Assembly: GCF_964213995.1 (NCBI RefSeq)
Contig: NW_027590120.1
Span: forward strand, 434,001 to 498,000
Direction of reading: 5' to 3'
Source: Mustelus asterias
Taxonomy: Eukaryota
DNA length: 64,000 nt
Positions 7,753-57,768 of this stretch are shown here, piece after piece. Numbering within the stretch: the first letter of the stretch is position 1; every line of letters begins with the position of its first letter. The notes under the pieces are model-generated. The model did no database searches, was not told the DNA's origin, and saw only the letters and a list, made by a program, of their open reading frames with translations. A program made the translations under genes and the position numbers.

Positions 7753-9045
7753 TGTTGTTATATGGTACAGATTAGATATATTATTTATAGCTCTGTAATA
7801 AAATACACTTATTATACCTGGCTGTGTAATTTTGGACTGCAGCTATATTATATATTTCCAACAATCTCTTCCCTCAGAGAATTGTTAGATTTCTCTTCCA
7901 TAGGGACCAGTGGAGGGATTGAATATATTCAAGGATGAGTTAGACAGTTTTTGAATGACAAGGGAGTCAATAATTATTGGGGACAGGCTGGAAAATGGAG
8001 AGAAAGCTCAGATGAGACAGGATTTCTTCACTCAAGGATGTGGTGACGTTTTGGATTCTCTACCCCAGAGGACTATGGAGCCTCAGTCATCAAGAATTTT
8101 CAAGAGAGGGGTTGATAGGTTTCTAGATATTGAAGATATCGATGGATATGGGGGACAGTGTGGGGAAAATAATGCAGAGGTAGATCAACCAATAATCTGA
8201 ATGAATGGTTGAGCAGACTCGATGGGCCGAATGCTGACTGCGGCTCCTATTTGTTATGATTTCTGTGCTGGACAGGAAGCAGTGAGCATGGATCTGTCAA
8301 TCAGCCTCAATCAGCACCTTCAGGAGAATTGGGAGGGTGAATATTAGATACAGCAGAGTGAGAATGGAGGGAGAGTGTGTGGGATGGAGATTCACAGCTT
8401 TTGGGGAATGGGAGAGGAAAGAATGTTCATTAGAATCATAGAATTGCTCCATCTTATCAACCGTCCCTGAGCTTTCACAATGAATCCCACTTCTGAGGAC
8501 ACCCTTATCTCTGACTTGTCTGTACTGCTGGCAGTCTCACAAAGCAGCTGCCTGTGTGCTGATACGGGAGGCCCTGCTCGGCAAGTTTAATGCTCCATGA
8601 CTGTGTCTTTAATGAACGCTCCATAGAAACGAGAAATGTCGATTTGAATTTCGATCGTATTCTGAATTGTGATGTTTTTTCTAAATTGACTTACAGGATA
8701 TTAGACAAGGAGAAATCAGACAGAAATCTCCAACATCACATCGAGATCTGACAGAGTGACTCGATCTCTTGGGACCTGAATATCATTGGCCTTTGAATCT
8801 AACAGGAGAAATGTTTGTTTGGCCTCTTGGCTTCAAAAGATTGTAAACATCGCTGTGACTAGAACTGCAGTGAGATACACACACCCGAGTGAGAGTGTTC
8901 CAGTGCAGTGAGTGTGGAAAGAGCTTTAACCAGTTACACAGCCTGAAAATACATCACAGCATTCACAGCGGGAGAGACTGTACCCGTGTTCTGTGTGAGA
9001 TTTAACTGATTGTTTAACCTGGAGAGTCACAAGGACACCCGCACC

Positions 9046-10365
9046 ATGGAGAAACTGTGCAAATGTGGGGACTGTGGGAAGGGATTCAGATACCCATCTG
9101 CACTGGAAATTCATCAACGCAGTCACACTGGGGAGAGGCCATTCACCTGCTCTGTGTGTGGGAAGGCATTCACTCATTCATCCCACCTGCGCAGACACAA
9201 TCTCACTCACACCAATGAGAAACCCTTTAAATGCACTGACTGTGGGAGCGGATTCAGAAGCTCTCAGGATCTGGTGTCCCACCAGCGCACTCACACTGAG
9301 GAGAGACCGTTCAGCTGCTCTCACTGCTCAAAGAGGTTTAAATGGTCATCCACCCTGCGGGTACACCAGCGAGTTCACACTGGGGAGAATCCATTCACCT
9401 GCTCGGTATGTGGAAAGGGATTCACTCTTTCATTCCACCTGCGCAGACACAATCTCACACACACCAATGAGAGACTGTTTAAATGCACTGACTGTGGGAG
9501 CGGATTCAAAAGCTCTGGGGAACTGATGTCCCACCAGCGCACTCACACTGAGGAGAGACCGTTCAGCTGCTCTCACTGCTCAAAGAGGTTTAGAACTTCA
9601 TCCACACTGCAGAGACACCAGCGACTTCACACCGGGGAGAGACCGTTCACCTGCTCTGTGTGTGGGAAGGGATTCACTCAGTTATCCATCCTACTGAAAC
9701 ACAATCTCACTCACACCAATGAGAGACCATTTAAATGCTCTGACTGTGGGAGTGGTTTCAAAAGCTCTGGAGATCTGGTGTCCCACCAGCGCATTCACAC
9801 TGAGGAGAGACCGTTCAGCTGCTCTCACTGCACAAAGAGGTTTAGAAAGCCATCCAGCCTGTGGGGACATCTGCGAATTCATACCGGGGAGAGACCATTC
9901 ACCTGCTCTGTGTGTGGAACAGGATTCACTCAGTTATCCCACCTGCGCAGACACAATCTCACTCATACTAATGAGAGACCGTTTAAATGCTCTGACTGTG
10001 GGAGCGGATTCAAAAGCTCTGGGGAACTGATGATCCACCAGCGCATTCACACTGAGGAGAGACCGTTCAGCTGCTCTCACTGCTCAAAGAGGTTTAGAAC
10101 TTCATCCAACCTGCGGAGACACCAGCGAGTTCACACTGAGGAGAGACCGTTCAGCTGCTCTCAATGCACAAAGAGGTTTAAAAGGTCATCCAACCTGTGG
10201 GAACATCAGCGAGTTCACACTGGGGAAAGACCATTCCCCTGCTGTGTGTGTGGGAAGGGATTCACTACTTCATCCAACCTGCTGACACACAAAGCCACTC
10301 ACTCCAAGGAGAGACCCTTTATTGCTCTGCCTGAGAGGCCGGCTTCAGAAGCTCTCAGGAACTGA
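9046..10365 (+). CDS. C2H2 zinc-finger protein 2 (15 fingers, no KRAB), with degenerate fingers on both sides
   Basis: ORF 9010-10365 with ATG at 9046 (MEKLCKCGDC). Decayed fingers at ~8810-9040 and 10366-10715. Acceptor ttacag at 8691-8696. Confidence 0.92.
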   Translation: MEKLCKCGDCGKGFRYPSALEIHQRSHTGERPFTCSVCGKAFTHSSHLRRHNLTHTNEKPFKCTDCGSGFRSSQDLVSHQRTHTEERPFSCSHCSKRFKWSSTLRVHQRVHTGENPFTCSVCGKGFTLSFHLRRHNLTHTNERLFKCTDCGSGFKSSGELMSHQRTHTEERPFSCSHCSKRFRTSSTLQRHQRLHTGERPFTCSVCGKGFTQLSILLKHNLTHTNERPFKCSDCGSGFKSSGDLVSHQRIHTEERPFSCSHCTKRFRKPSSLWGHLRIHTGERPFTCSVCGTGFTQLSHLRRHNLTHTNERPFKCSDCGSGFKSSGELMIHQRIHTEERPFSCSHCSKRFRTSSNLRRHQRVHTEERPFSCSQCTKRFKRSSNLWEHQRVHTGERPFPCCVCGKGFTTSSNLLTHKATHSKERPFIALPERPASEALRN

Positions 10366-19990: not shown

Positions 19991-20637
19991 GAATCGTTTG
20001 AGCTTTTAGTGGTGGAGTATTGACAAATGGGGTAACTTAATCAATCTCTTTGCACATGAGAAGTATCTAAATGGTGTCTGTCTGGTGAAAAGTAGTTGAG
20101 ACCTGCTCATATCGGACATTATCTTCTTGAATGGCGGGTCAGGCGTGAGGGACCAACAGATTTCTCATATAGCAAACCTGCCATCCCAGGAATCAGCCTG
20201 GTAAACCTTCGCTCTACTCCCTCTATACCAAGGATATCCTTCCTCAAATAGTAAAGCTCTGATTTCAATCAGTCAATATTTCTTCTCCACAAATATAAAA
20301 TGGGACAATTCTGAAGCTGCATTTGATAATTGATCACTTTTAAAATGTGTCGCCTGACAGAAAGGCACCTGATCCATATCTTTTCTAAGTACAGCTTAAC
20401 GAAGTTATTCACCTGGGGTAATCTGCAAATTTGTTCGAATTTGATCGGAGAATGATTGGATTTGATCCGGGAATAATATGACCGCCAAATGTGACATTTC
20501 ACAATACTGATAATGGATGAGCTCTGCGGGGAATATCGTTCAGCTGGGGCTGTATTGTCCCCTTCCCTTTCTGTGCATTTTCGATGAGATCCGACTCTCT
20601 TTTCCTGACACAGAACACTTGATTATCGACCTGCACT

Positions 20638-20676
20638 AGTTTTTGTATGAGGCCCATGGGAGGCTCATGCACTGTG
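20638..20676 (-). other. 23-bp-spacer recombination signal sequence (CACAGTG-23-ACAAAAACT)
   Basis: cactgtg at 20670-20676, spacer 20647-20669 (23 nt) and agtttttgt at 20638-20646, immediately 3' of the YYCALRP codons. Confidence 0.95.
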
Positions 20677-20986
20677 GGTCTCAGTGCACAGTAATACACG
20701 GCGCTGTCTGGCATCTTCAAATCTTTCATTGACAAGTGAAAAGTGCTTTGTTTCTGGTTGAGGTTCCCGCTGAAATGTTCAAAGCCGGGAGCCGTCTCGT
20801 TAAACCCATAACTATCGGCTCTGAGCAGATACCGAGGAGCTCGATGTGTATACTGGCGATACCAGAACAGGTAATGTTGTACAGCTGAACTCGGTACCGA
20901 GTAACTGCAGGGTGTTGCTGAATCTTCACCCTCTGCTGCTTCAACTCCTGGTTCTGACTGGGACACTGAGTCTCCGTTACTCACGT
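20677..20986 (-). pseudogene. T-cell receptor alpha/delta-type V exon (open frame; leader and intron disrupted)
   Basis: DSVSQ...CSY...LFWYRQ...DSAVYYCALRP Ig V-set pattern, acceptor gcag at 20987-20990 and a 23-RSS. Confidence 0.88.
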
Positions 20987-20988
20987 CT

Positions 20989-21292
20989 GCCTTTGGCTAA
21001 GATCAAGTGTAGTATGGATCGCCTGCACTTGGTTGAGGTCATTAGGTTACGCTGAGGCTTCATATGTTTCATATGAAGCAATTTTTAAAAGCGGCATCTC
21101 GGCCTTTTGGCTAAGATGCAAATGAGCTCAAGTCTTGGAGGAGGAACCTCCCCCTTCTCCAATCAGCTTGACTCATGTAGATCAGGCCCAGGACAGGGGG
21201 GTTTTGGTCTCCCGTCCTGTCTTGTCAGCCTGGATCTGAAATGTCTCAACTTGTTGAGACTCTGAATTGGATTTGATTTGATTGAATTGGAA
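20989..21292 (+). mobile_element. U2 snRNA-headed SINE-like element, copy 1 (5'-truncated), antisense in the V intron
   Basis: U2 nt ~12-39 at 20989-21015 and a second U2 piece (nt 7-27) at 21097-21117. Aligns along its length with 28331-28649. Confidence 0.85.
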
Positions 21293-21432
21293 AAGTATAA
21301 AAAAAAAGAAAATATACAGCGGATACAAAGCGGGTTAGGAGACAGAGGAAGACAATAGTCACACAGAGCTGGGAAACGGAAATTGCACAAGGGTTGAAAT
21401 ATACTTTACAATATAAGATCAGAATCACTGAC

Positions 21433-21450
21433 CTGGGATCAGAGCAATAG
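21433..21450 (-). pseudogene. Probable 3' remnant of the TCR V leader exon (…IALIP-D) with donor GTCAGT
   Basis: ATT GCT CTG ATC CCA G|gtcagt joins in phase 1 to AC GTG AGT AAC GGA GAC of the V exon. The 5' part is replaced by a Penelope tail. Confidence 0.55.
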
Positions 21451-21777
21451 TAAGAAGTCTCACAACACCAGGTTAAAGTCCAACAGGTTTTTTTTTATTT
21501 CAAAAATATACTTTATTCACACAAAAAAAACTCTCCAATAAAACATTGCAAAATTACAGATCCAAAAGTCATAAACAGTGTAAAAAAGAATCATTTTTAC
21601 AGTACAATACCGTGCTCATTTACAAAAACATTACATTCCGTTACATTTCATTTCTTAAAACTATATACATGTGTCAGAGTTTACTGTGTGCCGTTGTTTT
21701 TCAGGTTGGCACACAGTTATGCAGGCCGAGAGTATTCTGCAGTTACCCGGCCCTCGGTCTGCCTCGGTTGAGACGCT

Positions 21778-24700
21778 TTACACGGTGGCCTTTCCCCATT
21801 GTGCCTTGGCGGCGGCTGCCCCAAGCTTGAGCGCGTCCCTGAGCACGTAGTCCTGGACCTTGGAATGTGCCAGTCTGCAACACTCGGTCGAGGACAATTC
21901 TTTCAGCTGGAAGATCAGCAAGTTTCGGGCGGACCAAAGTGCGTCCTTCACCGAGTTGATGACCCTCCAGCAGTAGTTGATATTTGTCTCGGTACGCGTC
22001 CCCGGAAACAGCCCGTAGAGCACAGAGTCCTGCGTCACCGAGCTGCTCGGGACGAACCGCGACAAATACCACTGCATCTCGTTCCAGACCTTCTTTGCAA
22101 AGGCACATTCCACAAGGAGGTGTGCGACCGTCTCATCAGCCCCGCAGCCGCTTCGAGGGCAGCGTGCGGTGAGGTTGAGACCCCGGGCATGCATAAAGGA
22201 TCTGACGGGGAGTGCCCTTCTCACCACCAGCCAAGCCAGGTCTTGGTGCTTGTTTGTGAGTTCTGGTGATGAGGCATTCTGCCAAATGACATTGACAGTC
22301 CGCTCAGGGAACCATCCGACAGGATCTGCCGTCTCCTTTTCTCTCAGGGCCTCAAGGACATTACGTGCTGACCACTGCTTGATAGCCATGTGGTCAAAGG
22401 TGTGTTTCCGGAAGAATTTCTCCACGAAGGACAGGTGCTGCGGTACGGTCCAACTACTTGGAGCGTTCCGCGGCAATGTGGCCAGACCCATCCTCCGCAA
22501 CACTTGGGACAGGTAGAACCTCAAAAAATAGTGGCACTTGCTGTTACTGTACCGAGGATCTACACACAGCTTGATGCAGCCGCACACAAAGGTGGCCATC
22601 AGGATGAGGGCGGCGTTGGGAACGTTTTTCCCTCCGTTCTCTGGAGATTTGTGCATCGCCTCCCTCCGGACACGATCCATCTTTGATCTCCAGATGAACT
22701 TGAAGATGGCCCGGGTCACTGCTGCTGCGCAGGACTTGGGGAGAGGCCACACCTGCGCCACGTACAACAACACGGACAGAACCTCGCATCGGATCACAAG
22801 GTTCTTCCCAGTAATGGAGAGGGAGCGTTGCTCCCACAATCCCAATTTTTGTTTGGCTTTGGCGATGCGCTCCTCCCAGTTTTTGGCGCATGCCCCTGCC
22901 GCTCCGAACCATATCCCCAGCACCTTGAGGTAGTCTACCCTAATGGTGAAAGGGACAAAGGATGTGTCAGGCCAGTTCCCAAAGAACATGGCCTCACTCT
23001 TACCCTGGTTGACTTTGGCTCCCGAGGCCAGCTCGAACTGCTCACAGACTCGAAGAAGCCTGCGAACAGACGAGGGGTCCGAGCAGAAAACAGCCACGTC
23101 ATCCATGTAGAGGGAGGCTTTGACTTGCGTCCCTCCGCTGCCTGGGATTGTAACCCCTTTGATGCCTGAGTCGCTTCTGAGGGCCTCGGCAAAGGGTTCA
23201 ATGCAACACACAAAAAGGACGGAGGAGAGAGGGCAGCCCTGCCTGACTCCAGACCTGATTTGAAACATATCTGATTCTCACCCATTGATTGAAACTGCGC
23301 TACTGATGTCTGTGTAGAGCAGTTGGATCCAATTGCAGATTCCCTCCCCAAATCCCATTTTGGACAGCACATCCATCATGTAGCTGTGCGATATTCTGTC
23401 AAACGCCTTCTCCTGGTCTAGACTGATGAGGCAGGTGTCCACCCGCCTGTCCTGCACGTAGGCGATCGTATCCCTGAGTAGCGCAAGGCTATCAGAGATC
23501 TTCCTGCCGGGTACAGCACAGGTTTGATCAGGATGGATTACTGACCCCAGAGCAGACTTGACCCGGTTGGCGATGACCTTGGCCAGAATCTTGTAATCCA
23601 CATTCAATAGTGAAATAGGTCTCCAATTTCTAATTTCTTCCCTTTCCCCCTTCTGCTTGTAGATGAGAGTAATGATGCCTTTCCTCATGGATTCTGACAT
23701 GCTGCCTTCCAGAAGCATACTCTCGTATACTTCCAGGAGGTCCGGGCCCGTCAAGTCCCACAACGCCGAGTAAAACTCAGCCGGTAAGCCGTCGCTACCG
23801 GGAGTTTTACCCTTCTGAAGGGACTCGACGGCCTTTGTCAGCTCATCCAGAGCTACCGGTCTGTCCAGGCTCTCCCGCTCGCCGTCGTCCATGACTTGCG
23901 TGATGGACGACAGGAAAGACTGGGAGGCCGTGCTGTCTGTTGGCTTCAGGTCATACAGTCCGGCATAGAAGGATTTGCAGATCCTCAGAATGTCAGACTG
24001 CGATGACCCTACAGAGCCATCTTCTTCCTTCAGGCTTGTGATCACAGAGGATTCTCTGTGCACCTTCTGGAAGAAGAAGCGCGAGCACGTTTCGTCCTGC
24101 TCCACGAAGTGGACCCAGGACCGGAAGATAACCTTGGAGGCCTCCGAGACAAAGAGCGAGGCTTGCTGGCTCTTCACCACCCGGAGGTCCTCCTTGACAT
24201 CCACCCCCATCGACTGCAGTTGGAGTAGCTCCTGCATGCTTTTCTGGAGTCGGGACATTTCCCCCCGTCTCTCCCTGGCCTTCTGAACCCCTTTTCGGAT
24301 GAAGAACCTCTTGATGTTGCCCTTGATGGTTTCCCACCAGAGCGATGGAGACTCAAAGAAGGGTTTCACGGTCCTCCAACCGTGGTAAACCCTCTTGAGT
24401 TCCTCGAGGTTCTCTGGGGTCAACAGTTCTACATTAAGCTTCCAGGACCCCCTGCCCACTTTCTGGTTTTGCTCCAGCTGACAGTCTGCCAGCAGGAGGC
24501 AGTGGTCAGAGAAGAACACCGGCTTGACGTCGGTGGACCTGACCGTGAGCGTGCGGGATGCAAACATGAAGTCGATCCTGGAGCGGACAGACCCGTCTGG
24601 CCGCGACCACGTGTATCTACGCTGCCCTCCGTCTGCTGGATTGCTGAAGACGTCGAGCAGCCTGGCATCTTTGACTGTTTCCAGCAGGGCTCTGGACGTA

Positions 24701-25186
24701 GCGTCCAGTTTACTTTCGGCCCTGTTGGATCGGCCGGCCTTGTCAATGATGCAGTTAAAGTCCCCACCCAGTATGATTGGCCTGGAGGTGGTGAGTAGCA
24801 GTGGCAGCTGTTCGAAGAGTGCCAGCCGCTCGGTCTTGATGGCAGGGGCATACACATTGATCAGCCTGAGAGGGCAGTTTTTGTACGTGACATCTGCTAC
24901 GAGGAGGCGTCCTCCCACCACCTCCTTAACTTCGGAGACGGTGAAGTTGCCCCCCCCGCAGCAGAATGCCTAGGCCTGATGAACGGCAGTCGTTCCCACC
25001 TGACCAGATGGACGGTCCGTGGGACCACACACTCGACCAGCGCCTGTAGTTGCTGAGGTGTGGTATTCCACACTCCTGCAGGAACAGCAGGTCGGCCTTG
25101 ATCTTGGCCAGGTAGGACAAGCTGGCCGCACATCTCAGGCTGTCTTTAACACTGCGAACATTTAAGGATGCAAACTTTAAAGACAT
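21778..25186 (-). pseudogene. Tx1 ORF2 (endonuclease-reverse transcriptase), one frameshift and one in-frame stop
   Basis: MSLKFASLNVRS...LQE, GGDFN, SRIDF, SDH, WRPISLLN, QGCPLS, YMDD, CPRSGC...H...C. Frameshift in the G-run at ~24950; TGA at 23278-23280 followed by in-frame continuation. Confidence 0.93.
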
Positions 25187-25224
25187 TTTAATGTTTAAGA
25201 GGTTTGTCAGTTCTTACGTGTCCT

Positions 25225-26617
25225 TCAGTCAGCCTCCTCCAGGTGCTGCATTCCTGTGGCGCTGACGAAATTCTGCAGGGCTGCAGGGCTGAGGTAGCAG
25301 TCCGACCCTGCCTCAGGTCCCCGACCACGACTGGGTGACATGGTCGGTGTCGTGTAGCCCTCGGTTGGTGCCGGGCTTGCGGGCCGATCTCCGCCTTGGG
25401 CGTTGTCGGTGTCCTCGTTCCTGTTGTCCGGGGTTTCGGGGGCCTCGGCCGCACTGCTGCATCCGTCGGCTGGATGGTCCCCGGCTGCTTTGTGGTCATT
25501 GGTCCGAGTCCATTGTGGTTCCCGTGCCGCTTTCCTAATGCACCGTTTGAGGCTTTGTCGGCTGCCCGCTTTCTTTTCCTCGTCTGAGGAGACGTCGCCC
25601 CTGGAGACCCTGGCTGCGCAGGATTTCCTTTTCTGGGTGCTTTTCTTCTTCTTTACCACCTGCCAGGGGCCCTCGGGATCTCCGTTCTCCTGCTCCATGT
25701 CCTCTGCGCCCTCTGCTGGTGGTGGTGTGGATGTGTCATCATCCTGCTGCACTGGGGGGGGGGGGGGGGGGGGGCACCTTTGCTTCAGAAGCTTTCTCCG
25801 TGCCAGGATCTTTTGCGGTGGGCTTCTTGTTCCCTGAGGCGGCAGGAGCACTCGCCTTCCTCGCTCCGCCTCCGGTGATCTGGGCGTAAGTGACCTTCCG
25901 CTTGGGGCAGACTCTGTAAACGCGGCCAGTCTCCCCACACAGGGTGCAACATTTGCTGTCTTTGCACTCGTCGGTCGAGTGCCCCTCCTTCAGGCAGTTT
26001 CTGCATACGGTGACACTGCAGCTCGCGGCAAAATGGCCGGTTTTGCCACAGTTGCGGCACAGTCGTGGCTGGCCCGTGTAGTACAGGAAGCCTCGATTCC
26101 CTCCGATGGTAAAATTGGAGGGCGGGTGCAGAAGGCCTCCCTTGGGGTCAGTCTTCAGGGTGACTCTCACCTACCTTTTACAGGTCCATATTCCATACTG
26201 GTCCATGACGTCCACGCTCTCTCCCTTCACCTCCACGTACCGGGAGAGGAACGTCAGCACGTCAGCCGCAGGGACGTAGTGGTTATACATTTGGAATGTG
26301 ATAACCCGGTTCCGCTGGGACGGCATGGTGAACAGGGGCTCCGCCGTCAGGATAGAGAGGGGCTCCTCTTTGCCTTTCTCCTTCACCGCTGTCAGGAGCT
26401 TGACGCATCCTGACAGGCTTCTGAAGCTGACATCCACATGTGGCGGCTTGCTGTACTCAGCCACACCATAGATGTCTGCTGCTTGGAATCCGCAGCACTC
26501 GAACAATACCTTCTTCACGAGGTAATCGCGGCCCAGAGGCGAGCCTCCTCCCGAAGGCTTCACCCGGATGGTGTTGGGCTGCCTTTGGCCTGTAGCTTTC
26601 AGAGCAGCTGCAGCCAT
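25225..26617 (-). pseudogene. Tx1 ORF1 (ZCCHC3-like zinc-knuckle protein), one in-frame TAG and a homopolymer frameshift
   Basis: CRNCGKTGHFAASC, CRNCLKEGHSTDEC, CTLCGETGRVYRVC. TAG at 26171-26173; frameshift in the homopolymer at ~25754-25774. Confidence 0.88.
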
Positions 26618-26819
26618 AGCTCGAAAACACTGAGTCTTACTGTACCGGCGTTAGGTCCAAGCCAGAGGCTTGAAACCAGCATAAAGGTCCACCAGTAGCA
26701 GCAGAGCTCAAGTGTTGCAGACGGTCGTCTGCCGGTCGTCTGACGCCTGCTTCTTCAATCCACAATCCCCATCGAAACTCGATAGCTCCTTGCGAAATCC
26801 GAGCCCTTGGCTTTGATCA

Positions 26820-26854
26820 TACACTTGATCTTAGCCAAAAGGCCGAGAAGCGAT
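26820..26854 (-). ncRNA. U2 snRNA 5' fragment (nt 1-35) as the 5' end of the Tx1 element; not a U2 gene
   Basis: Reverse complement reads ATCGCTTCTCGGCCTTTTGGCTAAGATCAAGTGTA, matching the vertebrate U2 5' end. No U2 3' part is present. Confidence 0.95.
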
Positions 26855-27690
26855 CGTCTCTCTTGCCCGTGACGCTCCTTGCATTGAAGCAGATGCACTC
26901 CAGACCTCCAGGCTCACTGAGGTCATCCTCCCCCAGAATGCTCTTCCTCTTAGGTAGCCTTGTCTTGTCCCCAGCCTCTATGCTTATTGACCTATTGTTC
27001 TGATCCCCCCCCCCCCCGCCACATTAGTTTAAACCCACCCGAACCGCACTCGCAAAACTCCCAACTAGGATATTCTTGCCCCTCCAGTTTAGGTGTAACC
27101 CATCCTTCTTGTACAGGTGCCATCCTCTCTTGAAGACTTTCCAGTGATCCACGAATTTGAATCCCTCCCTCCTGCACCAGTCTTTTAGCCACGTGTTCAG
27201 CTTTACAATCTCCCAGTTCCTCGCCTCACCAGCTTGTGGCACTGGGAGTTGTCCAGAGATCGCTACCCTTAGAGGTCCTGCTTTTCAGCCTACTACCCAA
27301 CTCCCTGAATTGCTCTCTCAGGACCTCCCTGCTCTTTCTGCCTATGTCATTTGCACCAATGTGGACAATGATGTCTGTCTGGTTACCCGCCCCTTTTAGG
27401 ATGCTTCCTTCCCGTTAAGAGACATCCAGGACCCTGGTACCAGGGAAGCAGACTACCATCCTGGAGTCTCGTTCACGCCCAGAGAACCGCCTGCCTGTGC
27501 CTCTAACTGTTGCATCCCCACTACTATTGCTCTCATAGTCCCCCCTCTTTCCCTTCTGAGCCACAGAGCCCGAATCCGTGCCAGTGACCCAGTCACCGTG
27601 GCTTCCCCCTGGAGGGTCATCCCCCCCCCCCCCCCACCCCACAGTATCCAAAACTGTATACTTATTCTGGAGGGGGACAACCCCTCCATT
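26855..27690 (-). mobile_element. CR1 LINE 5' part: ORF1 esterase region and start of ORF2, cut by the Tx1 element
   Basis: VVCFPGTRV, WLKDWCRREGF and KDGLHLN (SGNH-like). ORF2 start GLECICFNARSVTGKRD abuts U2 +1. Confidence 0.85.
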
Positions 27691-27719
27691 CGTCAGATCT
27701 CGAAGCTTAAGTCCTGAAG

Positions 27720-28330
27720 AATATTCAGGCTTAACCTGATAAATGGCAAGTAATGTTTCACTGCACAAGTGCCAGGCAAGGACCATCTCCAACAGAAAGG
27801 AATCTAACCATATTCCCTTTACTTTGAATGGCAGCACCATTGCTGAATCCTTAACCATCAACATCCTGGCTGGTGGGGGCACACTGGGACCATTGGCCAG
27901 ACACGGAACTGTAAACGCTACGGCTCCAAGAGTTGGTCAGAGTCTGTGAATTCAGATGAGCAATTTGCTTCCTGTTTCTCAAATGCTTGTCCTCCATCTA
28001 CAAGGCACAAATCAGCAGTATGATGGAATCCACTCATCTTGATGGAATGAGTGCAGCTTCAAAAACACTCAAGAAACTCATCCATGACAAAGGAGCCACT
28101 GGATCAGCAGGCCGTTTACCAAATTAAACATTGACTCCACCACTGACACACAGTGGCAGCATTGTGTACCACATACAAGGTGGACTGTAGCAACTCACCA
28201 GGGCTCCTGAGACAGCATCTTCCAAACACGTACTACCTATCACCTAGATGGGCAAAGATATCAGATGAATGGAACAACAACGACCTTCAGATTCCCTTCC
28301 GAGCCAGACACCATCCTGACTTGGAATATA
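27720..28330 (+). mobile_element. Degraded LINE 3' region (CR1/L2 superfamily), host of the second U2-SINE
   Basis: aagtgccaggcaaggaccatctccaaca and catctacaaggcacaa motifs, ending caccatcctgacttggaa; the repeat resumes after 28650. Confidence 0.55.
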
Positions 28331-28649
28331 TTCGCTTCTCGGCCTTTTGGCTAAGATCAAGTGTAGTATGGATTGGATGCTGCACTTGGCTGAGGTCATT
28401 ATGTTACACTGAAGCTTCATATGTTTCATATCAAGCAATTTTTAATAGCGGCACCTCGGCCTTTTGGCTAAGATGCAAATGAGCTCAAGTCTTGGAGGAG
28501 GTGTTGCTTTGCTCCTCCAATCAGCTTGCCTCATGTAGATCAGGCCCAGGACAGGGTGGTTTGGTCGCTCGCCCTGTCTTGTCAGCCTGGATCTGAAATG
28601 TCTCAACTTGTTGAGACTTTGAATTGGATTTGATTTGATTGAATTGGAA
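28331..28649 (+). mobile_element. U2 snRNA-headed SINE-like element, copy 2 (near full length)
   Basis: U2 nt 2-39 at 28332-28369, second U2 piece (nt 8-27) at 28455-28474. Candidate TSD ttggaatat at 28321-28329 and 28644-28652. Confidence 0.88.
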
Positions 28650-28799
28650 TATTGCTTTTGCATCAGTGCTGTGGGATCAAATCCTGGACATCTCTTCCTA
28701 ACGGCATTGTACCAGATGGCTGCAGATTTTAAGAAGTTGATTCACCACCACCTTCTCTAGGGCAATTGGGGATGGGCTACAAGTCCTCGCATTGCCAAT

Positions 28800-30130
28800 G
28801 ACACCATGAAGGTCACCAATCTCTCGCTGGAGGATGTCATTTATGTTCATACCTGAGACATGGTAACACTGCTGGCCTGGATTGACTCCTCCATGCTTCA
28901 TGTATGGAGACACGTAGCCTTTGTAAACTCCACCAGATGTTCAAACAGCTTACGCTGCAGCTCCAGTATCTGCCGCCTTGTTAAAGACTTTAGTGATTTT
29001 TCATCTTCCTGAAGCTGGCAATACTCTGTCCTCAGAGTGTGAGTGAACTCAGCTATTACTGCCTCCATCAGCTGCTCGGGTTTCTCTGTGCTGTCCTGTG
29101 CTGCCAGATTGTGACCCCTTTGCTAATCGCGTGAGACAGTATCTGCTCTGGTGGAGGTCACGGTGGAATAATATGACAGTGCATCCTCTGAGGACCCTTC
29201 CTCATCTTCCGAGATAGATACCTGTCTCCCGCTCACCGCAGCTGTTGATTTGTGAGAGTGAAGAATGTTCGAGGTTAATGCACATTCCAACATGTCCTGC
29301 AGACTGTTCCAAATCTGGAACTCCATGTGACCAATGGTGAATACACAGGCTCTAGGTTTTGGTCTCAGCAGCAGAGTCTCTCCTGTGTCCATCCATTCAC
29401 TCACTCACTCTCTCTGGATCCACAACCCATCTCACCATCAGCGATTGCCCACCCAGCCTCCAGGTCTCCCAGCTCCAGCACTTCATCTTCCATTGGCATA
29501 AGGATGACACAATCCGCACACTGTCACTCTTGGCTCCTTCTCTGACATTTTGTGCTCTCTTCTACAAGCACATAAATTTACATTGTTACTCACCCATCGA
29601 AGACACGCCCTATCCTATGGGTGCTGCCTGCCTGACAGACCATCATGAGACCACCAGGCTGGTCACTCAGACTCGGCAGTACAGCAGTCACCTCTGACTG
29701 ACCAGAACCCTTCACAGAGAGGCTGGCATGTTCCTGACAGTCAATGCTGCTGTCAGATACATTGCCAAAGTATCTGGATTTCTCTTTCATTCTCATACAC
29801 ACATCAGCCTGTAGGTTTAACGCTCACCTTGTCAGAACATTTCAGTTTATTGATCCTTTTGCCTCACGGCAACCACGTACTGCCTGCTCAGGCCCTCGGC
29901 AGTTTCCATGCAGATCTGCTTGGGTTGATGTGACAGATCTCCTCCTCCAGTCCTGAGGGAACAGAACCTCCCTCCAAATCCATATAGCCTTGAGAATTTC
30001 CAGGGAAGTGTCAGCGAATTGGGTTTAATCTGCCTTCTGCCATTTCAGCCCTTTGTTCATTAACCAGGGCTCCCTCACTGGTCTCTGCAGAGCTGCTGCC
30101 TTGGAAAGTGCTGCTGGCTGCCTTTAAATA
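28800..30130 (-). pseudogene. Decayed Harbinger-type Myb/SANT gene remnants
   Basis: Exon ~29828-30043 gives fragments FADTSLEIL / EEVLFPQDWRRR / GKRIN with donor gtgagc, resembling Myb/SANT-like domains of PIF/Harbinger elements. Heavily frameshifted. Confidence 0.45.
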
Positions 30131-38930: not shown

Positions 38931-39436
38931 TGCACGTCTTACAATTAAAGGGCATAATTTCAGTATTTGCTGATTGCATATTACTCGGAGATCTAATGAA
39001 CTGATATCAGTTAGATTTTCTAGGACTCAAATAGGATCTCGACATGATCAGAGACACAACAGGTTAATATCCATACATGTATATGTTCCAGTGTATGTGT
39101 ACATATCAACGTATACAAAGTGGTGGGACATGCTTATGAGATGCTTTTAAACAAAAGCGACATGTTATTTGTTTTCCTGAATAGAGGCATAGAATAGTCA
39201 ATGCAAGAATGTCACCTTAACATTGCATTAATCTTTATTTAGTCCACAGCTAAAGCAAGGTGTTTAATTCTGTGTACCAAATTTCCTGGTCTGGGAGAAG
39301 GTGCTCAGGAAAGTAAGTAGATTGGTGATGATAATGAGTAGGAGCTTCAGTCACGTGGTGAGACTGACGAAGCTGGGACTTCTTTCCCGAGAGGAGGTCC
39401 AAAATATAAGATACTCAGCAGACGAATTTAAAAACC

Positions 39437-40136
39437 AGTCTGGGTTCACTCTGACCGTTGAGATTCAGTGTCTCAGGCCTGGTTGTGTTCACTCTGTCCT
39501 TTCAGATTCAGTGTCTCAGACCTGGCTGGGTTCCCACTGTCCTTTGAGATTCAATGTCTCAGGCCTGGTTGGGTTCACTGTGTCCTTTCAGATTCCGTGT
39601 CTCAGGGTTGGCTGGGTTCACTTTGTCCTTTGAGATTCAGTGTCACAGGCCTGGCTAGGTTCACTCTGTCCTTTGAGATACAGTGTCTCAGGCCTGGTTG
39701 GGTTCACTGTGTCCTTTCAGATTCAGTGTCTCAGGGCTGGCTGGGTTCACTTTGTCCTTTCAGATTCAGTGTCTCAGGGTTGGCTGGGTTAACTTTGTCC
39801 TTTGAGATTCAATGTCTCAGGGCTGGCTGGGTTCACTTTGTTCTTTCAGATTCAATGTCTCAGGGCTGGTTGGGTTCACTGTGTCCTTTCAGATTCAGTG
39901 TCTCAGGGCTGGCTGGGTTCACTTTGTCCTTTGAGATTCCGTGTCTCAGGCCTGGTTGGGTTCACTGTGTCCTTTCAGATTCAGTGTCTCAGGCCTGGTT
40001 GGGTTCACTTTGTCCTTTCAGATTCAGTGTCTCAGGCCTGGCTGGGTTCACGCTGTCCTTTGAGATTCAGTGTCTCAGGCATGGTTGGGTTCGCTGTGTC
40101 CTTTAAGATTCACTGTCACAGGCCTGGCTGGATGTG
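39437..40136 (-). repeat. 43-bp satellite block (~16 units), inverted relative to the block at 52.8-61.3 kb
   Basis: Unit ggttcactgtgtcctttgagattcagtgtctcaggcctggctg. Confidence 0.93.
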
Positions 40137-49810: not shown

Positions 49811-52785
49811 AGAGATTGAAATTTGAGAGATCACAAGTTAAAGATGGACAGAAATTGAGAAGAGGCTGCAAACAAAGAGAAAAAGCAGAGGTGGGTAAAT
49901 GGGCAGACAGAATTTGTAGAGCTCCATACTCACCATGGGAATGTCCTCCCTCGGTGATCTCTCAAACTCTTTCCATCCCCTCTCCCATGGTGCGGGGGAG
50001 AGATCCAAGGCCAGGGGCTTTGTGCTGGGTAAAGGGGGGTTTAAAATATCAGTGCAAGCACGCACATACGCACATTCACAAAGACAAAGTTACCCTCATA
50101 CTTACCAATCCACGTGTAGAGAGACAGAACAATGAATCCCCAGCCTTTTCATACCCTCACCGAGTCACACAAACTGCCCACACCTCCCCAATCAACCCCC
50201 ATCCAACCACATCTCCTACACCTCACCTGAACCCACCTACTCCAGGTATGGCCCAGTCCAACACCAATCTGTCTCTGAGAGGATGGGTGAGGGTTGTGTG
50301 TGTGGGTTGGTGAGCACCATGCAAATGATTTATCCCAAGGCTCTCTCTCACTCTTCACATCACCAGCACTGGGGGCTGAGAGAAAATGGGTTTAAAGTAA
50401 CTAGCAGCCCTGCCCAGACAGAGAGAGACCAGGTCTGAATGTGCATTGCACAACTTGTTCATTCAGGACTCCATCGGCTACAGATTTGCATCTTTTGCTG
50501 ATTCTTGCAAAGTTCATTTTTTGCTTATGTTGCCTGAACTCAAACACTTTCTTGCAAAGTTCTTTGTTGCTGCACTTACAATTCAATTTCTGATTTCCAA
50601 ACCAACCTCTGATGTTGTCTGTCCAGGTGACTGAATGCGTGCGCCCTTGCTTAATGTTTAATAAGTCACCACAGATCAGAGCTGCCAAAGAAGCGTTCAG
50701 ACTTTTTTGAGAGCAGAAGCACTGATTGGGGGAGGGGATGGAGAGAATAAGAGTGAAGTTTCATTCAGATAAATGTTGTCAATGCGTCTTTAACCAGCAA
50801 CTCTGCAGAGAGAGAGAGATGCAGGATTTCAAACTCTCTGGGAACTGTACCTAGGGACACACACATACGCACAGATAGGCATCAGCTCATGTTTATAGGA
50901 ACAACCAGGCTGGAGTCTGCAGCTAATTCCCGCCCCCCACCTCCCCTCTTAAAAAAATGTGCTTCATTCATGAAGTCTATGAGGGTTCCATGACTTCCCA
51001 TTCAGTGTAATCCAGTTCAGTTTGTTAGAATACAGTGTGTGACCCTCTGAAGGAGTTGACAGATGAGTTAGATTTCTAATCTTCATTTCCGATCAAACAT
51101 TCTCCAGTGTGTTGGGCTGCACAGATCAGATCGAGCTGGGCACGAGCAAGACCACAGCAGATCAGCCAGAGTGATCCCTGCCTCCCTCTGCAGCCCTATC
51201 GATCCTGGATCTACAGATGACTGTTTTAACTAGGGTCTGGAGCAGGTCCAGGGGAAATCTTCCCACTCACCCAGCCCCTCCACACTGTACAGCCTTCTGG
51301 ACTCAACATCCAGTCCAACAGTTTCGGAAAGTAAACTCTGAGTCCATTCTGTTTCCTTTTCCTTGATTCCTTTCCCCTTCTTTCAGTCAGCAGTCCCCCT
51401 GCTCCAGGCACAGCTTCTTTGTTTCTTTTCTCTCTCCATCTCCATTCCCTTTGGCGCTTGGGGATTCACTTTTCTCTCATTCAAACTCTCCTGCCTATCA
51501 CAGACCTTCCCTTAGTCCTTGTCACAGCCACCCCCTTCTCCAAACCTGCAACATTTATAACTGTTCACCAAATGCCCTATTCAAGAGGGATAAAAAACAT
51601 CATGTATCTTTGCTTAAATTCTGACCTACAATATGGTCAAAGCGTGATCTCAATGAGCGGGATTTTAACTTCCCCGAATTTGGAGCTTTGCTTCTTCAGG
51701 ATTAAGAGGAAATGGGTGCAGTCTCATCATCTCTCATGTCCCAGGAAGTTCCACACCACCCTAACATTTCCCAGTAGCTGCCGCGAATAATGTAGCTGTC
51801 TAAAACTCTCCTTATCATCTCCTTACCATCCCAGCAAGATCCAAACCCTGCAGTATTTCCAGCAGTGAATTACAATGAAAGTATCAGACAGAAGGTGCAG
51901 TGTGTTTTAGATAAAAAATAAACAGCCGGTTGGACTTGGGAATATTGTAAAACAAATACAAGTACATGTGATGTGTTGAGCTGATTGTGGAATTGGTTGT
52001 AATTCTCACACTATTTCTTTTACAGTTTTAGGTAATAGTCATCAATAAATCCAAATCCAGGATGTGGTGTCCTCAGATAGATGACTCTGCATTACATCAA
52101 AGGGGAGACCCCTGAACTTTTCCCCAAATATCACTGTGGAATATGCTTCAACTCCAGCTATAGGTCTTGTAATTTCTGAATCAGTCGGGTCATTCCTCCT
52201 GGTTTTTTATGAATTGGCATTTAGCTTCTCATTTTGAGTGAGTCTGCATTCTGTTCAATGAGAAACAGAATAGAATGTATATCGGATATTGCACTGTCCG
52301 TATTAAAGCTCTTATATCACATTACATTGTGGAGCAGAGCCGGGATTATAATTCAAAATTTGGTGCTTATTATTGTCATATGTATTTGAATTCCATTTCG
52401 TAGCAGCTTCCATTCTTACACCATTAAATAAAGATTATGACAGATAAAGACACGGTTTGATTCCTTTCTCTTCATTTTTGTGCTCTAGATCGACACATCG
52501 AGAACTACATTTCCCCAATAACTGAACACAGCACCTTGCTGCATTCCAGCACTAACCCAAATACACAAATCCTCTGCTATCCGCACAGTTTAGCACATTT
52601 CATCCATTTGCTGCCTCCTCCCAAATCCTGTTGTTATCCTCACGCTTTATTATATTCCACCAATCTGCCATTGGCTTACTAAATCCTGCTTTTACCATCA
52701 CCCTTTCTAACATTTCAGCAATCCGTGCGTGTTCTCCAAAACACTGCTGTTATCCACAATGTTTACTGCATTTCACCATTCTGTC

Positions 52786-53392
52786 CACATCCAGGCCTGT
52801 GACACTGAATCTCAAATAAAAGTTTGAACACAGCCAGGCCTGTGACACTGAATCTCAAAATACACATTGAACCCAGCCAGGCCGAAGAGCTTGAATCTCA
52901 AAAGACAGAGTGAATCCAGCTAAGACTGTGACACTGAATCTCAAAAGACTGAATGAACCCAGCCAGGTCTGAGACACTGAAACTCAAAGAACAGAGTGAA
53001 CACAGCCAGGCCTCTGACACTGAATCTCAAAGGACAGAGTGAAGCCAGCCAGGCCTGTGACACAGAATATCAAATGTCAGAGTGAACCCCGTGAGGCCTG
53101 AGCCACTGAATCTCAAGGGACAGAGTGAATCTAGCCAGGCCTGTGGCACTCAATCTCAAATAGCAGTGGGAACACAGCCGGGCCTGTGACACTGAAGCTC
53201 AAAGGACAGAATGTATCCAGCCAGGTCTGTGACACTGAATATGAAAGGACACAGTGATTCCAACCAGGCCTGTGACACTGAATCTCAAAGGACGCAGTGT
53301 ATCCAGCCGGGCCTGTGACACCCAAACTGAAAGGATACACTGATCCCAACCAGGCCTGTGACACTGAATCGGAAAGAACAGAGTGAACGCAG
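52786..53392 (+). repeat. 43-bp satellite, left of the Gypsy insertion
   Basis: Unit cagccaggcctgtgacactgaatctcaaaggacagagtgaacc. Confidence 0.93.
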
Positions 53393-54152
53393 TCATGCGC
53401 GATTAAATCACTCGGGATGCTGTACGTACCCGGGAAATAAAGGCTTTTATTAGTAACAAGAATGGAGCACACTATATTACAATACAATCCCAGACTAAAG
53501 GGTCACCAGGCAGTGCAGTGACCTTTGTACTGCTACAGGTAGGCGGAGCCAACTGGAGTGTACCACAAAACAATACCAACAGGTAGAACACCCCAACCCT
53601 AACCCCAACAGTGTCAACAGTAGTATATACACGAGATACCCATAGTGCTAACCATCTATGGTTCAGTACCCATAGTGGTAACCATCTATGGTTCACCACA
53701 TTCACCCCTCCTTTAAGACAAAAGGCCAGTGGGGCAAACAAAAGAAGAGAAAAAAAAAGTGCAAACTGTCCATAATGTCACAGGTTCAGTCTTTTCGGAG
53801 GGCCGCACCGTCTCTGCAATCTCCTCAACACTGGCGGTAGCGCCGGTTCTGGTGACCGTGATGACCCTCTCTCCAAAACGGTGTCCAGAGACTCCTCCAG
53901 TTCCTCACGGACAGGTGGACCACGAGGTGGCGATGACCTCCTGGACTCAAGCACGCCCCGAGGTGGCGACAATCTCCTGGACTCAGGCAAGCTGTACACA
54001 GGAGTAAGAGGGTTAAGTGGTGGTCCCGATACTGCCCGCGCCTTGTCAGGAGGGGAGATAATGGTCAAGGGGTCCCTAACCAGGGGTGCGCGAGCGACAG
54101 GGGTTTCCAAGTCCCCTGCAGGTGCCAGATCTCGAATAGAGACCGTGTCCTC

Positions 54153-55637
54153 TCACCCGTCAGGATATGCCACATAGGCATATGGAGGGTTGGCGTGTAG
54201 GAGGTGGACCTGTTCAACCAAAGGGTCAGACTTGCAGGTCCTAACATGCCGCCGCAGGAGGACAGGTCCTGAGTACATCAACCAAGACGGCAGTGAGGTC
54301 CCAGAGGAAGACTTCCTAGGGAAGGTAAACATCCGCTCATGTGGGGTAGCGTTGGTTGCCGTACACAGGAGGGACCGGAATGAGTGGAGCGCATCAGAAA
54401 GTACCTCTTGCCAACGGGAGACTGGAAGACCCTTGGACCTCAAGGCCAGTAAGACAGCCTTCCAGACTGTAGCATTTTCTCTTTCAACCTGCCCGTTACC
54501 CCTGGGATTGTAACTCGTCGTACGACTTGTGGCAATCCCTTTTGAGAGCATGTATTGCCTCAAGTCGTCACTCATAAATGACGAGCCCCTGTCACTATGT
54601 ATATAGCTGGGGTAACCGAACAGTGTGAAAAGATCCCTCAACGCTTTAATAACCGTGGCAGTGATCATGTCTGAACAGGGAATGGCAAAAGGGAATCGGG
54701 AGTACTCGTCAATCACATTGAGGAAGTACACATTCCGATCTGTCGAAGGAAGGGAGCCCTTGAAGTCCACACTCAGTCTTTCAAAGGGCCGAGTGGCCTT
54801 AATGAGATGTGCCCTGTCAGGTCGGTAGAAGTGCGGCTTGCATTCAGCACATACCTGGCAGCTTCGGGTTATTGACATGACATCCTCCACTGAGTGGGGT
54901 AGATTTCGGGCCTTTATGAAATGGAAGAGCCGAGTGATCCCCGGATGGCAGAGATCATTGTGGAGGGCCTGTAATCGATCCTCCTGCACACTGGCACATG
55001 TTCCACGCGACAGGGCGTCTGGGGGCTCATTGAGCTTCCCCGGACGGTACATGATATCATAGTTGTAGGTGGAGAGTTCAATTCTCCACTTCAAGATTTT
55101 ATCATTTTTGATCTTACCCCGTAACGTGTTGTTGAACATGAACGCCACGGACCGCTGGTCCATGAGCAGGGTAAATAATTTCCCAGCCAAGTAATGGCGC
55201 CAATGCCGTACGGCCTCCCCAGTGGCCTGAGCCTCGTTTTCCACCGCGGAGTGCCGAATTTCAGGGCCTTGGAGGGTGCGAGAGGAAATGGCGACGGGCC
55301 TGCCCACTTGGTTGAGTGTGGCGGCCAGGGCGAAGTCAGATGCATCACTCTCCACCTGAAAGGAGATGGATTCATCAACAGCGTGCATCGTGGCCTTCGC
55401 GATGTCAGCTTTTATCCCTTCAAAGGCTAAGCGTGCCTCTGCTGCCAGGGGAAAAGAAGTAGACTTAATAAGTGGACGGGCTTTGTCCGCATAGTTGGGG
55501 ACCCACTGTGCGTAGTATGAGAAGAAGTCTATGCATCTTCTCAGTGCTTTAATGCTCGTGGGTAAGGGAAGTGCAAGGAGGGGACACATGCAGTCTGGAT
55601 CAGGGCCAAGGACCCCGTTTTCCACCACGTAATCCAA
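54153..55637 (-). pseudogene. Gypsy RNase H-integrase
   Basis: SDASD RNase H, HHCC (H..HPG..CQVC), and the DDE core (SVDF, HSDRG, GQVER). Confidence 0.92.
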
Positions 55638-55716
55638 GAATAGCTAGGCGGCGGTTGCTAAAGACACACTTCTCCCTGTTATAGGTCAAATTCAGGCGAG
55701 ACGCATTGCGTAAGAA

Positions 55717-57768
55717 CTATAGGAGGTTTGCGTCGTGGTCCTGCTGGTCATGGCCGCAGATAGTGACGTTGTCCAGGTACGGGAAGGTAGCCCGTCGCCC
55801 GTTTTGGTCCACCATTCGGTCCATTGAATGCTGGAAGACCGAGACCCCATTCGTGACGCCAAAGGGGACCCTTAAGAAATGATAGAGACGACCATCCGCC
55901 TCAAAGGCCATGTATGTTCGGTCCTCTGGGCGAATGGGGAGCTGGTGGTAGGCTGACTTCAAGTCGATGGTGGAGAACACCCAGTACTGCGCAATCTGGT
56001 TGACCATGTCAGATATGCGCGGGAGAGGATACGCATCCAACTGCGTGTATCTATTAATGGTCTGACTATAGTCTATGACCATCCGGGGTTTGTCTCCAGT
56101 TTTAACCACCATGACTTGTGCTCTCCATGGGCTAGAGCTAGGTTGAATGATCCCTTCCCTGAGGAGCCGCTGAACCTCAGATCGAATAACGATCCGATCC
56201 TCAGCGCTGTAACGCCTGCTCTTAGTTGCAATGGGCTTGCAGCCTGGCACGAGATTCTCGAATAAAGATGGCGGGGTGATTCTGAGTGTCGAGAGGCTAC
56301 ACGTGGAGTGCGCTGGGCAATTTGGAGGCTGCTGTTCTCCCACTGAAAGTGAAGGGAGTGGCCCATTGTACTGCAGGGTCACCCTCCGCAGGTGGACCAT
56401 AAAGTCTAGCCCCAGGAGTATCGGAGCACCAAGGTGCGGTGACACGAGGAGCCTGAAGTGCTCGTAAACTGTGCCTCGCACCGTTAGGTTGACCACGCAG
56501 CTCCTGAGCACAGTAACAGATCGGGACCTCGACGCCATCGAAATTGTCTGTCTGACAGTCTGTACTCGGAGTCCGCACCGTTTTACAGTGTCAGGGTGAA
56601 TAAAAGTCTCCGTGCTCCCACTATCAAACAGACAATGAAATGGGCGTCCATTTACCTCTATGCCCATCATGGACTTGTCGAGTCTGTGAGGCTTGGCCTG
56701 GTCCAGGACGACTGACGCCACCGTTGAGCCTGGATTGCAACTGTACGCAGCTGAGATGGTTGATGGAAGATGACCCTGCTGGTCGTCTGTGGTTGGTGCC
56801 GACCAAAATGGCTGCGCCCATGGATCGCACATGGTCGGTGGCGCTGAAAGTGGCGGCACCTGCAGGTCGCATGCGTCTTGCGCCGTCGTCGTCAGGAATG
56901 GCGGCGTCCATGAACCGCACGTGGTGGAAGACCTCGATGAAGCCTGAGACAAGGAGACAGATTCTGGAGAATCACACGCCGCACTGCTATTCTTCGAAGG
57001 TGGTTTAGCTCTACATACTTTGGCATAGTGCCCTTTCTTCCCACACGCAGAGCAAAATACCGTTCTGGCCGGACATCGCTGCCGAGGGTGTTTCGCCAAA
57101 CCACAGAAATAGCACCATGGGCCTCCTGGAGCAGCCACCGTCGTCAGGTCCGAGGTTGCAGGCACGATCGCGCAGTTTCTCAGAGCCGCTGAGTAATGTT
57201 GGTTCGGTGGCTGTACTTGCCACGACGTTCCCACGTGGTCGGTGGGGTAGGTTTCTCGGCTTCTGGAGGCCGTTTCCATCATGTCAGCCAATTCCACCGT
57301 CTTAGCTAGGTCTAGGTTGCCTTGCTCTAGCAGCCGCAGGCAAATGTAGGATGAGCTGATTCCCGCCACAAACGCATCTCGGATCAAATCGTTAGTATAC
57401 TGGGCCACCGACACAGGCTTGCAATTGCAGGCTCTGGCTAGCTGCTGAAGTTTGCACAGGTACTGCCCCGTCGTTTCACCGGGCTGCCGCCGTCGGGTGG
57501 CTAGAAGGTGTCGAGCATGAATCTCGTTTGGCGATTTGTTGTACAGTTTCTTAAGTAGTTCGATGGCCGCTTTGTAGTCAGGGGCATCGCGGATTGATGA
57601 GTATACAGTGTCGCTTACCCTTGCGTGGAGGACCCGCAGTCGATCGGCGTCGCTTTGAATGGCTGTTGAGGCCTTGACATAATCTTGGAAACACTTGAGC
57701 CAATGATCGAACATGATTGACGCACGCGGATCTAACGTCAGTCGATCAGGTTTCAACAGTTGCTCCAT
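55717..57768 (-). pseudogene. Gypsy Gag-protease-RT (ends in a premature stop)
   Basis: CYFC...H...C and CSAC...H...C knuckles, protease LFDSGS, RT YLDN (YxDD mutated). Confidence 0.92.

Follow-up and report, generated by a model that had tools for sequence, protein, structure and literature searches.

The window analysed here, a stretch of 64,000 nucleotides, carries two copies of a short retroposon whose 5' end derives from U2 snRNA. On balance we read it as a SINEU-like element, likely moved by a Tx1-type LINE, whose RNA is predicted to fold its U2 sequence into a hairpin that was likely edited by ADAR before reverse transcription and that likely keeps this U2 end away from splicing. The features concerned are given below, in window coordinates except for the last.

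20989..21307, plus strand: SINE copy 1 (U2-headed, 5'-truncated, with an A-rich tail)
20989..21015, plus strand: U2 head of SINE copy 1, equal to U2 nt 12–39 minus one U
21023..21048, plus strand: antisense arm of SINE copy 1, opposite U2 36–11 (15 Watson–Crick pairs, 7 G-U pairs, 4 mismatches)
21054..21079, plus strand: predicted local hairpin 2 of SINE copy 1
21094..21119, plus strand: second U2 fragment (U2 7–27), its extended stem I predicted to be kept (P = 1.0 in nine of nine consensuses)
21123..21175, plus strand: predicted hairpin 3 of SINE copy 1
21180..21236, plus strand: predicted hairpin 4 of SINE copy 1, with a 3' strand resembling U2 40–62
21217..21274, plus strand: diverged U2 39–105-like segment of SINE copy 1
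21292..21307, plus strand: Tx1-like 3' end (AAAGTAT) and A tail of SINE copy 1
28331..28649, plus strand: SINE copy 2, near full length (head 28331–28369, arm 28377–28405)
21488..26854, minus strand: Tx1-type LINE, frameshifted, the likely mobilising partner
26820..26854, minus strand: U2 1–35 head of the Tx1 LINE
26801..26819, minus strand: Tx1 antisense arm, in the register of the SINE arm over U2 29–14
G000:C1:27463239–27463459, minus strand (L120): older U2-derived SINE family, also at L088 and L301–L330

The complementarity of head and arm is beyond chance. As originally predicted, CTGCACTTGGTTGAGGTCATTAGGTT lies at 21023–21048, downstream of the U2 head at 20989–21015, and is complementary to U2 nt 11–36 through 22 pairs; the pairing had been described as largely G-U, but only 7 of the 22 pairs are of this kind, the other 15 being Watson–Crick. 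Compared with the genome's own U2 gene, the copy 1 head begins at G12 through 5' truncation, and the arm, read from U2 36 to 11, is mismatched at A24, A23, U17 and U16. No duplex as good as that of copy 1 (−37.8 kcal/mol) was obtained among 1000 dinucleotide shuffles or 2000 random 45-mers from the window. For copy 2 (−30.5 kcal/mol) the corresponding numbers were 2/1000 and 7/2000, and for the head and arm of the Tx1 LINE (−28.0 kcal/mol) they were 6/1000 and 10/2000.

Within the SINE RNA, U2 nt 11–36 or 11–39 are predicted to fold into a hairpin of 22–25 pairs. The head paired with the arm in all nine subfamily consensuses, with the probability of its native stem I at most 0.003, while the second U2 fragment kept its extended stem I in every one of them. 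A further pairing claimed for copy 2, between GAAGC and U2 4–8, did not survive this check: it formed only in the isolated 5' domain and had a probability of 0.00–0.16 in the nine full-length consensuses. The arm was also expected to cover the branch-point recognition sequence, U2 33–38 (PMC13019295). Elements of the copy 2 type do cover all of it, but those of the copy 1 type cover only 33–36 and leave 37–38 open, and a 32-copy subfamily with a long loop leaves U2 35–39 unpaired; coverage is full in some SINE subfamilies and partial in several others. The predicted fold depends on the strand, the sense SINE RNA folding at −28 to −36 kcal/mol and the minus strand, treated as RNA, at −10 to −21 kcal/mol. 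In the SINE cDNA at most a 6-bp arm stem is predicted and U2 1–27 stays free of the arm, whereas with an exact-antisense control arm the cDNA would snap back at −33 kcal/mol. The Tx1 hairpin has no such asymmetry (−26.7 vs −24.7), which weakens the argument from strand asymmetry as a general rule.

The rest of the SINE is likewise predicted to be a chain of hairpins (z = −6.4 for the entire element). This would suit a simpler account, in which the hairpin serves only to shield the 5' end or to make the RNA more stable, a role that any stem could fill, and a U2 complement simply came most readily to hand through inverted insertion; inverted U2-headed insertions into heads do occur (L012, L102, L150, L230). 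Yet U2 stem I would close the 5' end already, the second U2 fragment retains precisely that stem, and U2 1–10 lies outside the main helix. We regard mere protection as quite unlikely.

The family is large. A search of the 3.68 Gb genome, which its repeat motifs suggest to be shark-like, returned 4130 exact matches to U2 15–36 and 2645 exact matches to the SINE 3' motif, which sets the number of copies at 2645 or more. Our sample comprised 98 head matches, out of the first 100 on contig C1, together with 3'-motif matches and the best hits to copy 2; the resulting 239 alignments of at least 150 nt came down to 222 copies once duplicates with the same flanks were removed. From 93 of the 98 sampled heads the sequence runs straight into the arm, the remainder being two members of the older family, two extra U2 pieces standing before a SINE and one broken head. 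The 205 near-full copies fell into 57 clusters, and the nine clusters with at least four copies (140 in total) gave consensuses of 298–329 nt, for an element length of ∼320 nt. The head, U2 1–39, is identical to the genome's U2 gene. Copies carry A tails, and tandem runs share one target site duplication (TSD); a crude scan found a repeat of 7–23 nt at both ends of 83/144 copies, the shortest of which may be due to chance. The arm was also recovered in sequencing-run contigs filed under two other organism labels (X2, X3, X5) and in none from X1; these contigs span the arm and not the head, contain one A>G site, and cannot show editing.

Several arrangements around the copies deserve mention. 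Extra U2 pieces, reaching up to about nt 57, precede some SINE and Tx1 heads (L012, L029, L075, L125, L162, L040), much like the 5' extensions of SINEU-2. At the four loci with inverted insertions, oppositely oriented SINE or Tx1 elements with TSDs sit in the head or loop of other SINE copies, and such insertions are a possible origin of the antisense arm. An abundant short repeat, ACCTGTTGGACTTTAACCTGG, adjoins or hosts several insertions (window 21445–21487; L015, L020, L027) and is possibly a second preferred target.

The helix is well conserved among copies, as the original prediction required. At least 21 of the 22 pairs are kept in 188 of the 204 sampled copies that span the arm (22 in 131, 21 in 57, 20 in 14 and fewer in two). 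The idea that pairing was retained while the sequence diverged was also borne out, pair-keeping transitions occupying 234/2855 cells and pair-breaking ones 50/1629 (per-site p = 0.04); 38 of these 50 breaks fall at a single site, the partner of A35, in one subfamily that has a longer stem beyond it. Counted by parsimony, the bias towards pair-keeping gave p = 0.04, or p = 0.08 without A sites, so that after correction for descent it is modest. RNAalifold, applied to 32 copies (from every cluster with at least two members, the two nearest its consensus), recovered 19 head–arm pairs with 35 one-sided pair-keeping changes and two breaks; 97.9% of 682 cells were paired in these copies, compared with 25–44% in slid registers. 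The same 32 copies showed no two-sided covariation in the head–arm helix, and the shuffle control was not exceeded (500/500), but because the head does not vary this test is without power. We are highly confident that the head–arm hairpin has been kept by selection on the source RNAs. Were the arm instead a neutral relic, an old inverted duplication decaying unselected and its A>G changes the product of DNA-level or reverse transcription errors, the missing two-sided covariation and the weak significance after descent correction would be unsurprising; the loop between head and arm, however, is free to change in both sequence and length, yet the pairs are maintained.

The pattern of substitutions bears on the same question. 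When A>G and T>C changes were polarised on the five nearest neighbours of each of the 222 copies, A>G stood at 264/13615 and T>C at 178/18385 (19.4 vs 9.7 per 1000; p = 3e-13), and the other five complementary substitution pairs were symmetric. Genome-wide, U2 A35>G in the context UAG occurs in 358 heads, compared with 34 for its strand mirror, T22>C in CTA, and in the sampled copies A35>G must have arisen independently about eight times on the tree. In one copy there are 20 A>G with a single other change, and others have 15, 14 and 10 A>G; at the background rate, 20 such changes among about 72 A would have a probability of 1e-23. Copies rich in A>G occur on both genomic strands with TSD-like flanks. 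In eight copies high in A>G, the 5' neighbours rank U (30.8%), A (18.8), C (11.4) and G (9.6), the order of preference reported for ADAR (PMC11019741); depletion of 5' G is confined to these eight copies and is absent over all SINE copies. Strand-specific, clustered A>G with this order of neighbours in the eight copies is the mark of an ADAR substrate.

With the hyper-mutated copies set aside, the excess concentrates in the arm (66/692 A>G vs 22/1067 T>C, 144 copies assigned), and outside the arm there is none (66/5444 vs 71/6606). In the head, 10/780 vs 7/1231 was not significant in a sample picked largely by exact head match. Among 154 position-sampled copies without the three hyper-edited ones, the element-wide rates were 15.9 and 12.1 per 1000 (p = 0.05). 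The main arm hotspot is polymorphic in seven of nine subfamilies; copies with G at this position do not have more A>G otherwise (p = 0.63) and are the younger ones, from which it follows that part of the signal is inherited from source copies. A35>G heads did not differ significantly from control heads in further A>G (19 of the first 100 listed vs 4/34, p = 0.43), and the older U2-derived family showed no A>G excess (28/776 vs 34/1037).

Errors of the reverse transcriptase were considered as the source of the A>G changes and rejected, because 14 Tx1 copies (L170, L219–L230 and window 21488–26854) have the opposite bias on their sense strand (T>C 7.5 vs A>G 3.7 per 1000, p = 1e-4). This opposite bias, the 358 vs 34 mirror counts and the hyper-edited copies all argue against the neutral relic, which we consider very improbable. 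The SINE copies very probably carry an ADAR imprint. The marks on one strand suggest that the fold-back forms in cells, where ADAR likely edits it before it is copied back into genomic DNA; in our reading, the A>G changes would reflect ADAR acting on the folded RNA, some of the edits having been inherited from source copies. The earlier proposal that A-to-I editing was fixed by reverse transcription is thus supported for individual copies, but it does not account for all of the fixed wobbles. Tallied against the exact U2 antisense, the arm has 11 fixed differences, namely three A>G, four C>T and four transversions, so that editing explains only part of them.

The Tx1-type LINE encodes, by Pfam, ZCCHC3-like RNA-binding domains in ORF1 and APE, RT and zf-RVT domains in ORF2. 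Exact Tx1 5' ends number 44 in the genome, 16 of them in one tandem array, and many full-length Tx1 copies lie outside U2 genes. A common 3' end motif and a common insertion site in U2 genes, between nt 38 and 39, make it likely that this LINE mobilises the SINE. The arms of the two elements had been described as differing in register and as independent solutions to the same task. The difference in register does not hold, since over U2 29–14 neither arm needs a gap when aligned to the exact antisense, and both leave A23 and A24 in a 2 × 2 purine loop; with these features shared, the independence of the arms is unproven. Their extents do differ (36 or 39 to 11 in the SINE; 29 to about 10, then 4–9, in Tx1).

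Such similarities raise the alternative that the hairpin is mainly a retrotransposition signal, mimicking the Tx1 5' hairpin for Tx1 protein binding or for the 5' junction, with the hiding of U2 as a side effect. The shared register and purine loop fit this, as do one SINE subfamily with the Tx1-type U2 1–35 junction and the uneven branch-point coverage among subfamilies. Against it, the two arms agree at only eight of 16 positions, nearly all of them forced by complementarity, 5'-truncated SINE copies without head and arm still integrate, and the older family has no such arm. Mimicry as the main role seems to us unlikely, if deserving of weight.

Insertions in U2 genes offer a view of how the SINE may be transcribed. 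Two kinds of U2 gene occur. Type A genes are arranged in 1833-bp repeats and type B genes, which differ in their 3' half, in repeats of about 448 bp; arrays lie at G000:C24:42.98–43.06 Mb, C24:44.81–44.94 Mb and C21:28.05–28.08 Mb. An 8035-bp repeat, present in 16 units, has in each unit an intact U2 and a Tx1 with its tail joined to U2 39 onward. An A tail is joined to U2 39–52 at 33 genomic places, and the 19 junctions at U2 39 that we examined comprised seven SINE, ten Tx1-type and two other tails, which is the evidence that both SINE and Tx1 insert at 38|39. Other LINE-like tails joined to U2 39–52 (L263, L264, L266, L270) indicate that several families may use this site. At 38|39 insertions the 5' junction is often seamless, U2 1–39 standing behind U2 upstream DNA. 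Ten exact type-B upstream junctions continued as SINE in four cases, as Tx1 in two and as U2 in four; for type A, one SINE (L170) lies in register behind the upstream DNA, and it was the only one among the 40 scored of 1096 candidates. At L292, about 105 nt of type-B spacer (U2-B) lie inside the TSD, so that this copy came from RNA made at a U2-array locus. U2 upstream DNA directly ahead of SINE copies is a likely source of promoters, and we think it probable, with reasonable assurance, that the SINE has captured U2-gene promoters.

The older U2-derived family sheds light on how the element was assembled. Its members were 82–90% identical among the 40 scored of 2487 first-look candidates, and each is an almost complete U2 into which a strand has been inserted that pairs with the element's own diverged U2 40–62. 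The Sm site and stem III are retained (score 96, 0/1000 shuffles), and the branch-point bases are mostly mutated. The SINE 3' half matches the middle part of this family, so that the SINE amounts to a patchwork of U2 pieces and the strands they pair with, to which a new head and arm have been added at the 5' end, comparable to the stepwise 5' additions in SINEU-1. The U2 39–105-like segment at 21217–21274 is weak on its own (p about 0.01–0.04) and clear by way of the older family. An antisense match of the 5' strand of hairpin 4 to true U2 37–70 was not significant, and its partner is therefore the diverged U2 copy, not U2 itself.

How these pieces might work together can be sketched as follows. 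Source SINE copies would owe their transcription to U2 promoters or to read-through within U2 arrays. Annealing of its cDNA to U2 1–38 in the target gene, which would renew the fusion to the promoter, would be the reason that the head is kept, by analogy with R2. With the head held to true U2, two-sided changes would be impossible and the arm could drift only to G-U, through C>T or through A>G, the latter supplied by ADAR; this would explain both the excess of wobbles and the strand asymmetry of the hairpin. Wobbles and mismatches would confine the hairpin to the RNA strand, leaving the head of the cDNA free. In the RNA, the hairpin would abolish native stem I and hide the U6-pairing bases and most of the branch-point bases, which would prevent a transcript from a U2 promoter acting as a defective U2. 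Whether masking of U2 is the main purpose of the hairpin we judge to be close to evenly balanced, leaning slightly against. The combined proposal, of a U2-gene promoter parasite with an antisense hairpin on the RNA strand only, in which ADAR-fed wobbles hide the splicing bases and the cDNA stays free to re-fuse, is tentative and in its entirety somewhat doubtful.

The closest known relatives in kind are SINEU-1, -2 and -3, crocodilian retroposons with a U2-derived head that target Mariner-N4 (Kojima, 2015; PMC4494074). Going by the main text of that report, SINEU and the present SINE have in common (i) a short, non-coding sequence with a U2-derived head, an A tail and TSDs, (ii) tandem insertions sharing a TSD, extra 5' U2 pieces and internal oligo-T and (iii) a Tx1 partner that is itself U2-headed. 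The present element has a U2 head, multiple non-coding copies of < 500 nt, an A-rich tail with TSDs and a target shared with Tx1, and we class it as the same kind of element as SINEU without filing it as one of the three crocodilian families. The main text on SINEU describes no antisense arm and no editing, and leaves transcription open; its figure 1B alignments or supplements could show arms (PMC4494074). Unlike SINEU as so described, here an arm folds over the head, A>G marks are present, and copies stand at U2 38|39 behind U2 upstream DNA. In the available parts of two further papers SINEU is mentioned for crocodilians only (PMC5786205, PMC5381603). Our literature search covered titles and abstract openings, with Repbase, Dfam and subscription journals outside its scope, and within it we found no U2-headed SINE beyond crocodilians, no antisense arm on a U2 head and no ADAR-edited genomic SINE copies. 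The present family extends snRNA-headed SINEs beyond crocodilians, and named loci at which U2 upstream DNA leads in register into the SINE make the question of SINEU transcription testable.

The non-LTR retrotransposons Keno (Tx1 clade) and Utopia target U2 genes with a 3' junction at U2 nt 39 (PMC4640811). The elements here share this junction and, in the partner LINE, an APE-type endonuclease; as an APE-RT non-LTR element at U2 38|39 (by Pfam and 10 of 19 junctions), the Tx1 partner bears the mark of Keno. Unlike Keno and Utopia, the SINE is non-autonomous, and the majority of its copies, like many of Tx1, are found away from U2 genes and bring the U2 head with them; the available portion of the report on Keno and Utopia mentions no arm (PMC4640811).

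R2 is co-transcribed from its target gene with upstream 28S sequence in its RNA, and its cDNA is proposed to anneal there and so yield precise 5' junctions (PMC3774820). In R2 as in the SINE, 5' sequence derived from the target is paired by sequence of the element, but the R2 pairing, as given in the available part of that paper, belongs to an HDV-like ribozyme, and the SINE has a plain hairpin in which no ribozyme was found (PMC3774820). That the arm might supply the P1 pairing of an HDV-like self-cleaving ribozyme is encouraged by this pairing in R2 and by the existence of read-through copies (L292). Three observations count against it: no Rfam ribozyme family matched 20500–29000 at E ≤ 10, a loose descriptor matched two of nine consensuses and not Tx1, and copies start near U2 +1, which is an A. 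On the Rfam and descriptor results we rejected an HDV-like ribozyme (a nested double pseudoknot cleaving 5' of a G), and self-cleavage is the least credible of the explanations considered.

ADAR hyper-editing of viral and Alu double-stranded RNA has been described, and genomic retroelements are reported to retain DNA editing by APOBEC (PMC11019741, PMC2873906). The SINE copies resemble these, so far as the available parts of the papers describe them, in their clusters of a single mismatch type and in a preference for 5' U and 3' G; here the clusters are A>G, fixed in genomic copies on the sense strand, whereas the published genomic cases seen there are G>A by APOBEC. The SINE would provide an example, on the scale of a genome and with a strand control, of ADAR edits that retrotransposition has apparently fixed. 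The A>G marks would at the same time footprint the hairpin in vivo, with A35 of the branch-point recognition sequence as a main site, and, if this is true, the copies in the genome would amount to an inherited archive of RNA structure and ADAR activity in the germline. The element also suggests a design rule for capturing part of an essential RNA, which is to retain it for targeting and conceal it in the transcript.

Some further observations concern short motifs in the SINE and the remainder of the window. An octamer, ATGCAAAT, which we take to be the snRNA enhancer core, occurs inside the SINE at 21116–21123, where it overlaps the second U2 fragment, and at 28473–28480. It is intact in 192/221 copies, is partly constrained by pairing, and in tandem runs sits roughly 200 nt ahead of the next head. 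At 21080–21088, AATTTTTAA is spaced about as the U2 Sm site and is conserved across SINE copies; it lacks the final G of the Sm-site consensus. The SINE has internal oligo-T runs, and Rfam gave no tRNA, 5S or 7SL match within it. Elsewhere, the window contains arrays of a 43-bp tandem repeat in both orientations (39434–40133, 52700–53500 and 58070–61325), open reading frames of an LTR-type retroelement on the minus strand (54153–57786; protease, RT, RNase H and integrase in two frames), and, on the plus strand at 9010–10365, an open reading frame with about 14 C2H2 zinc fingers.
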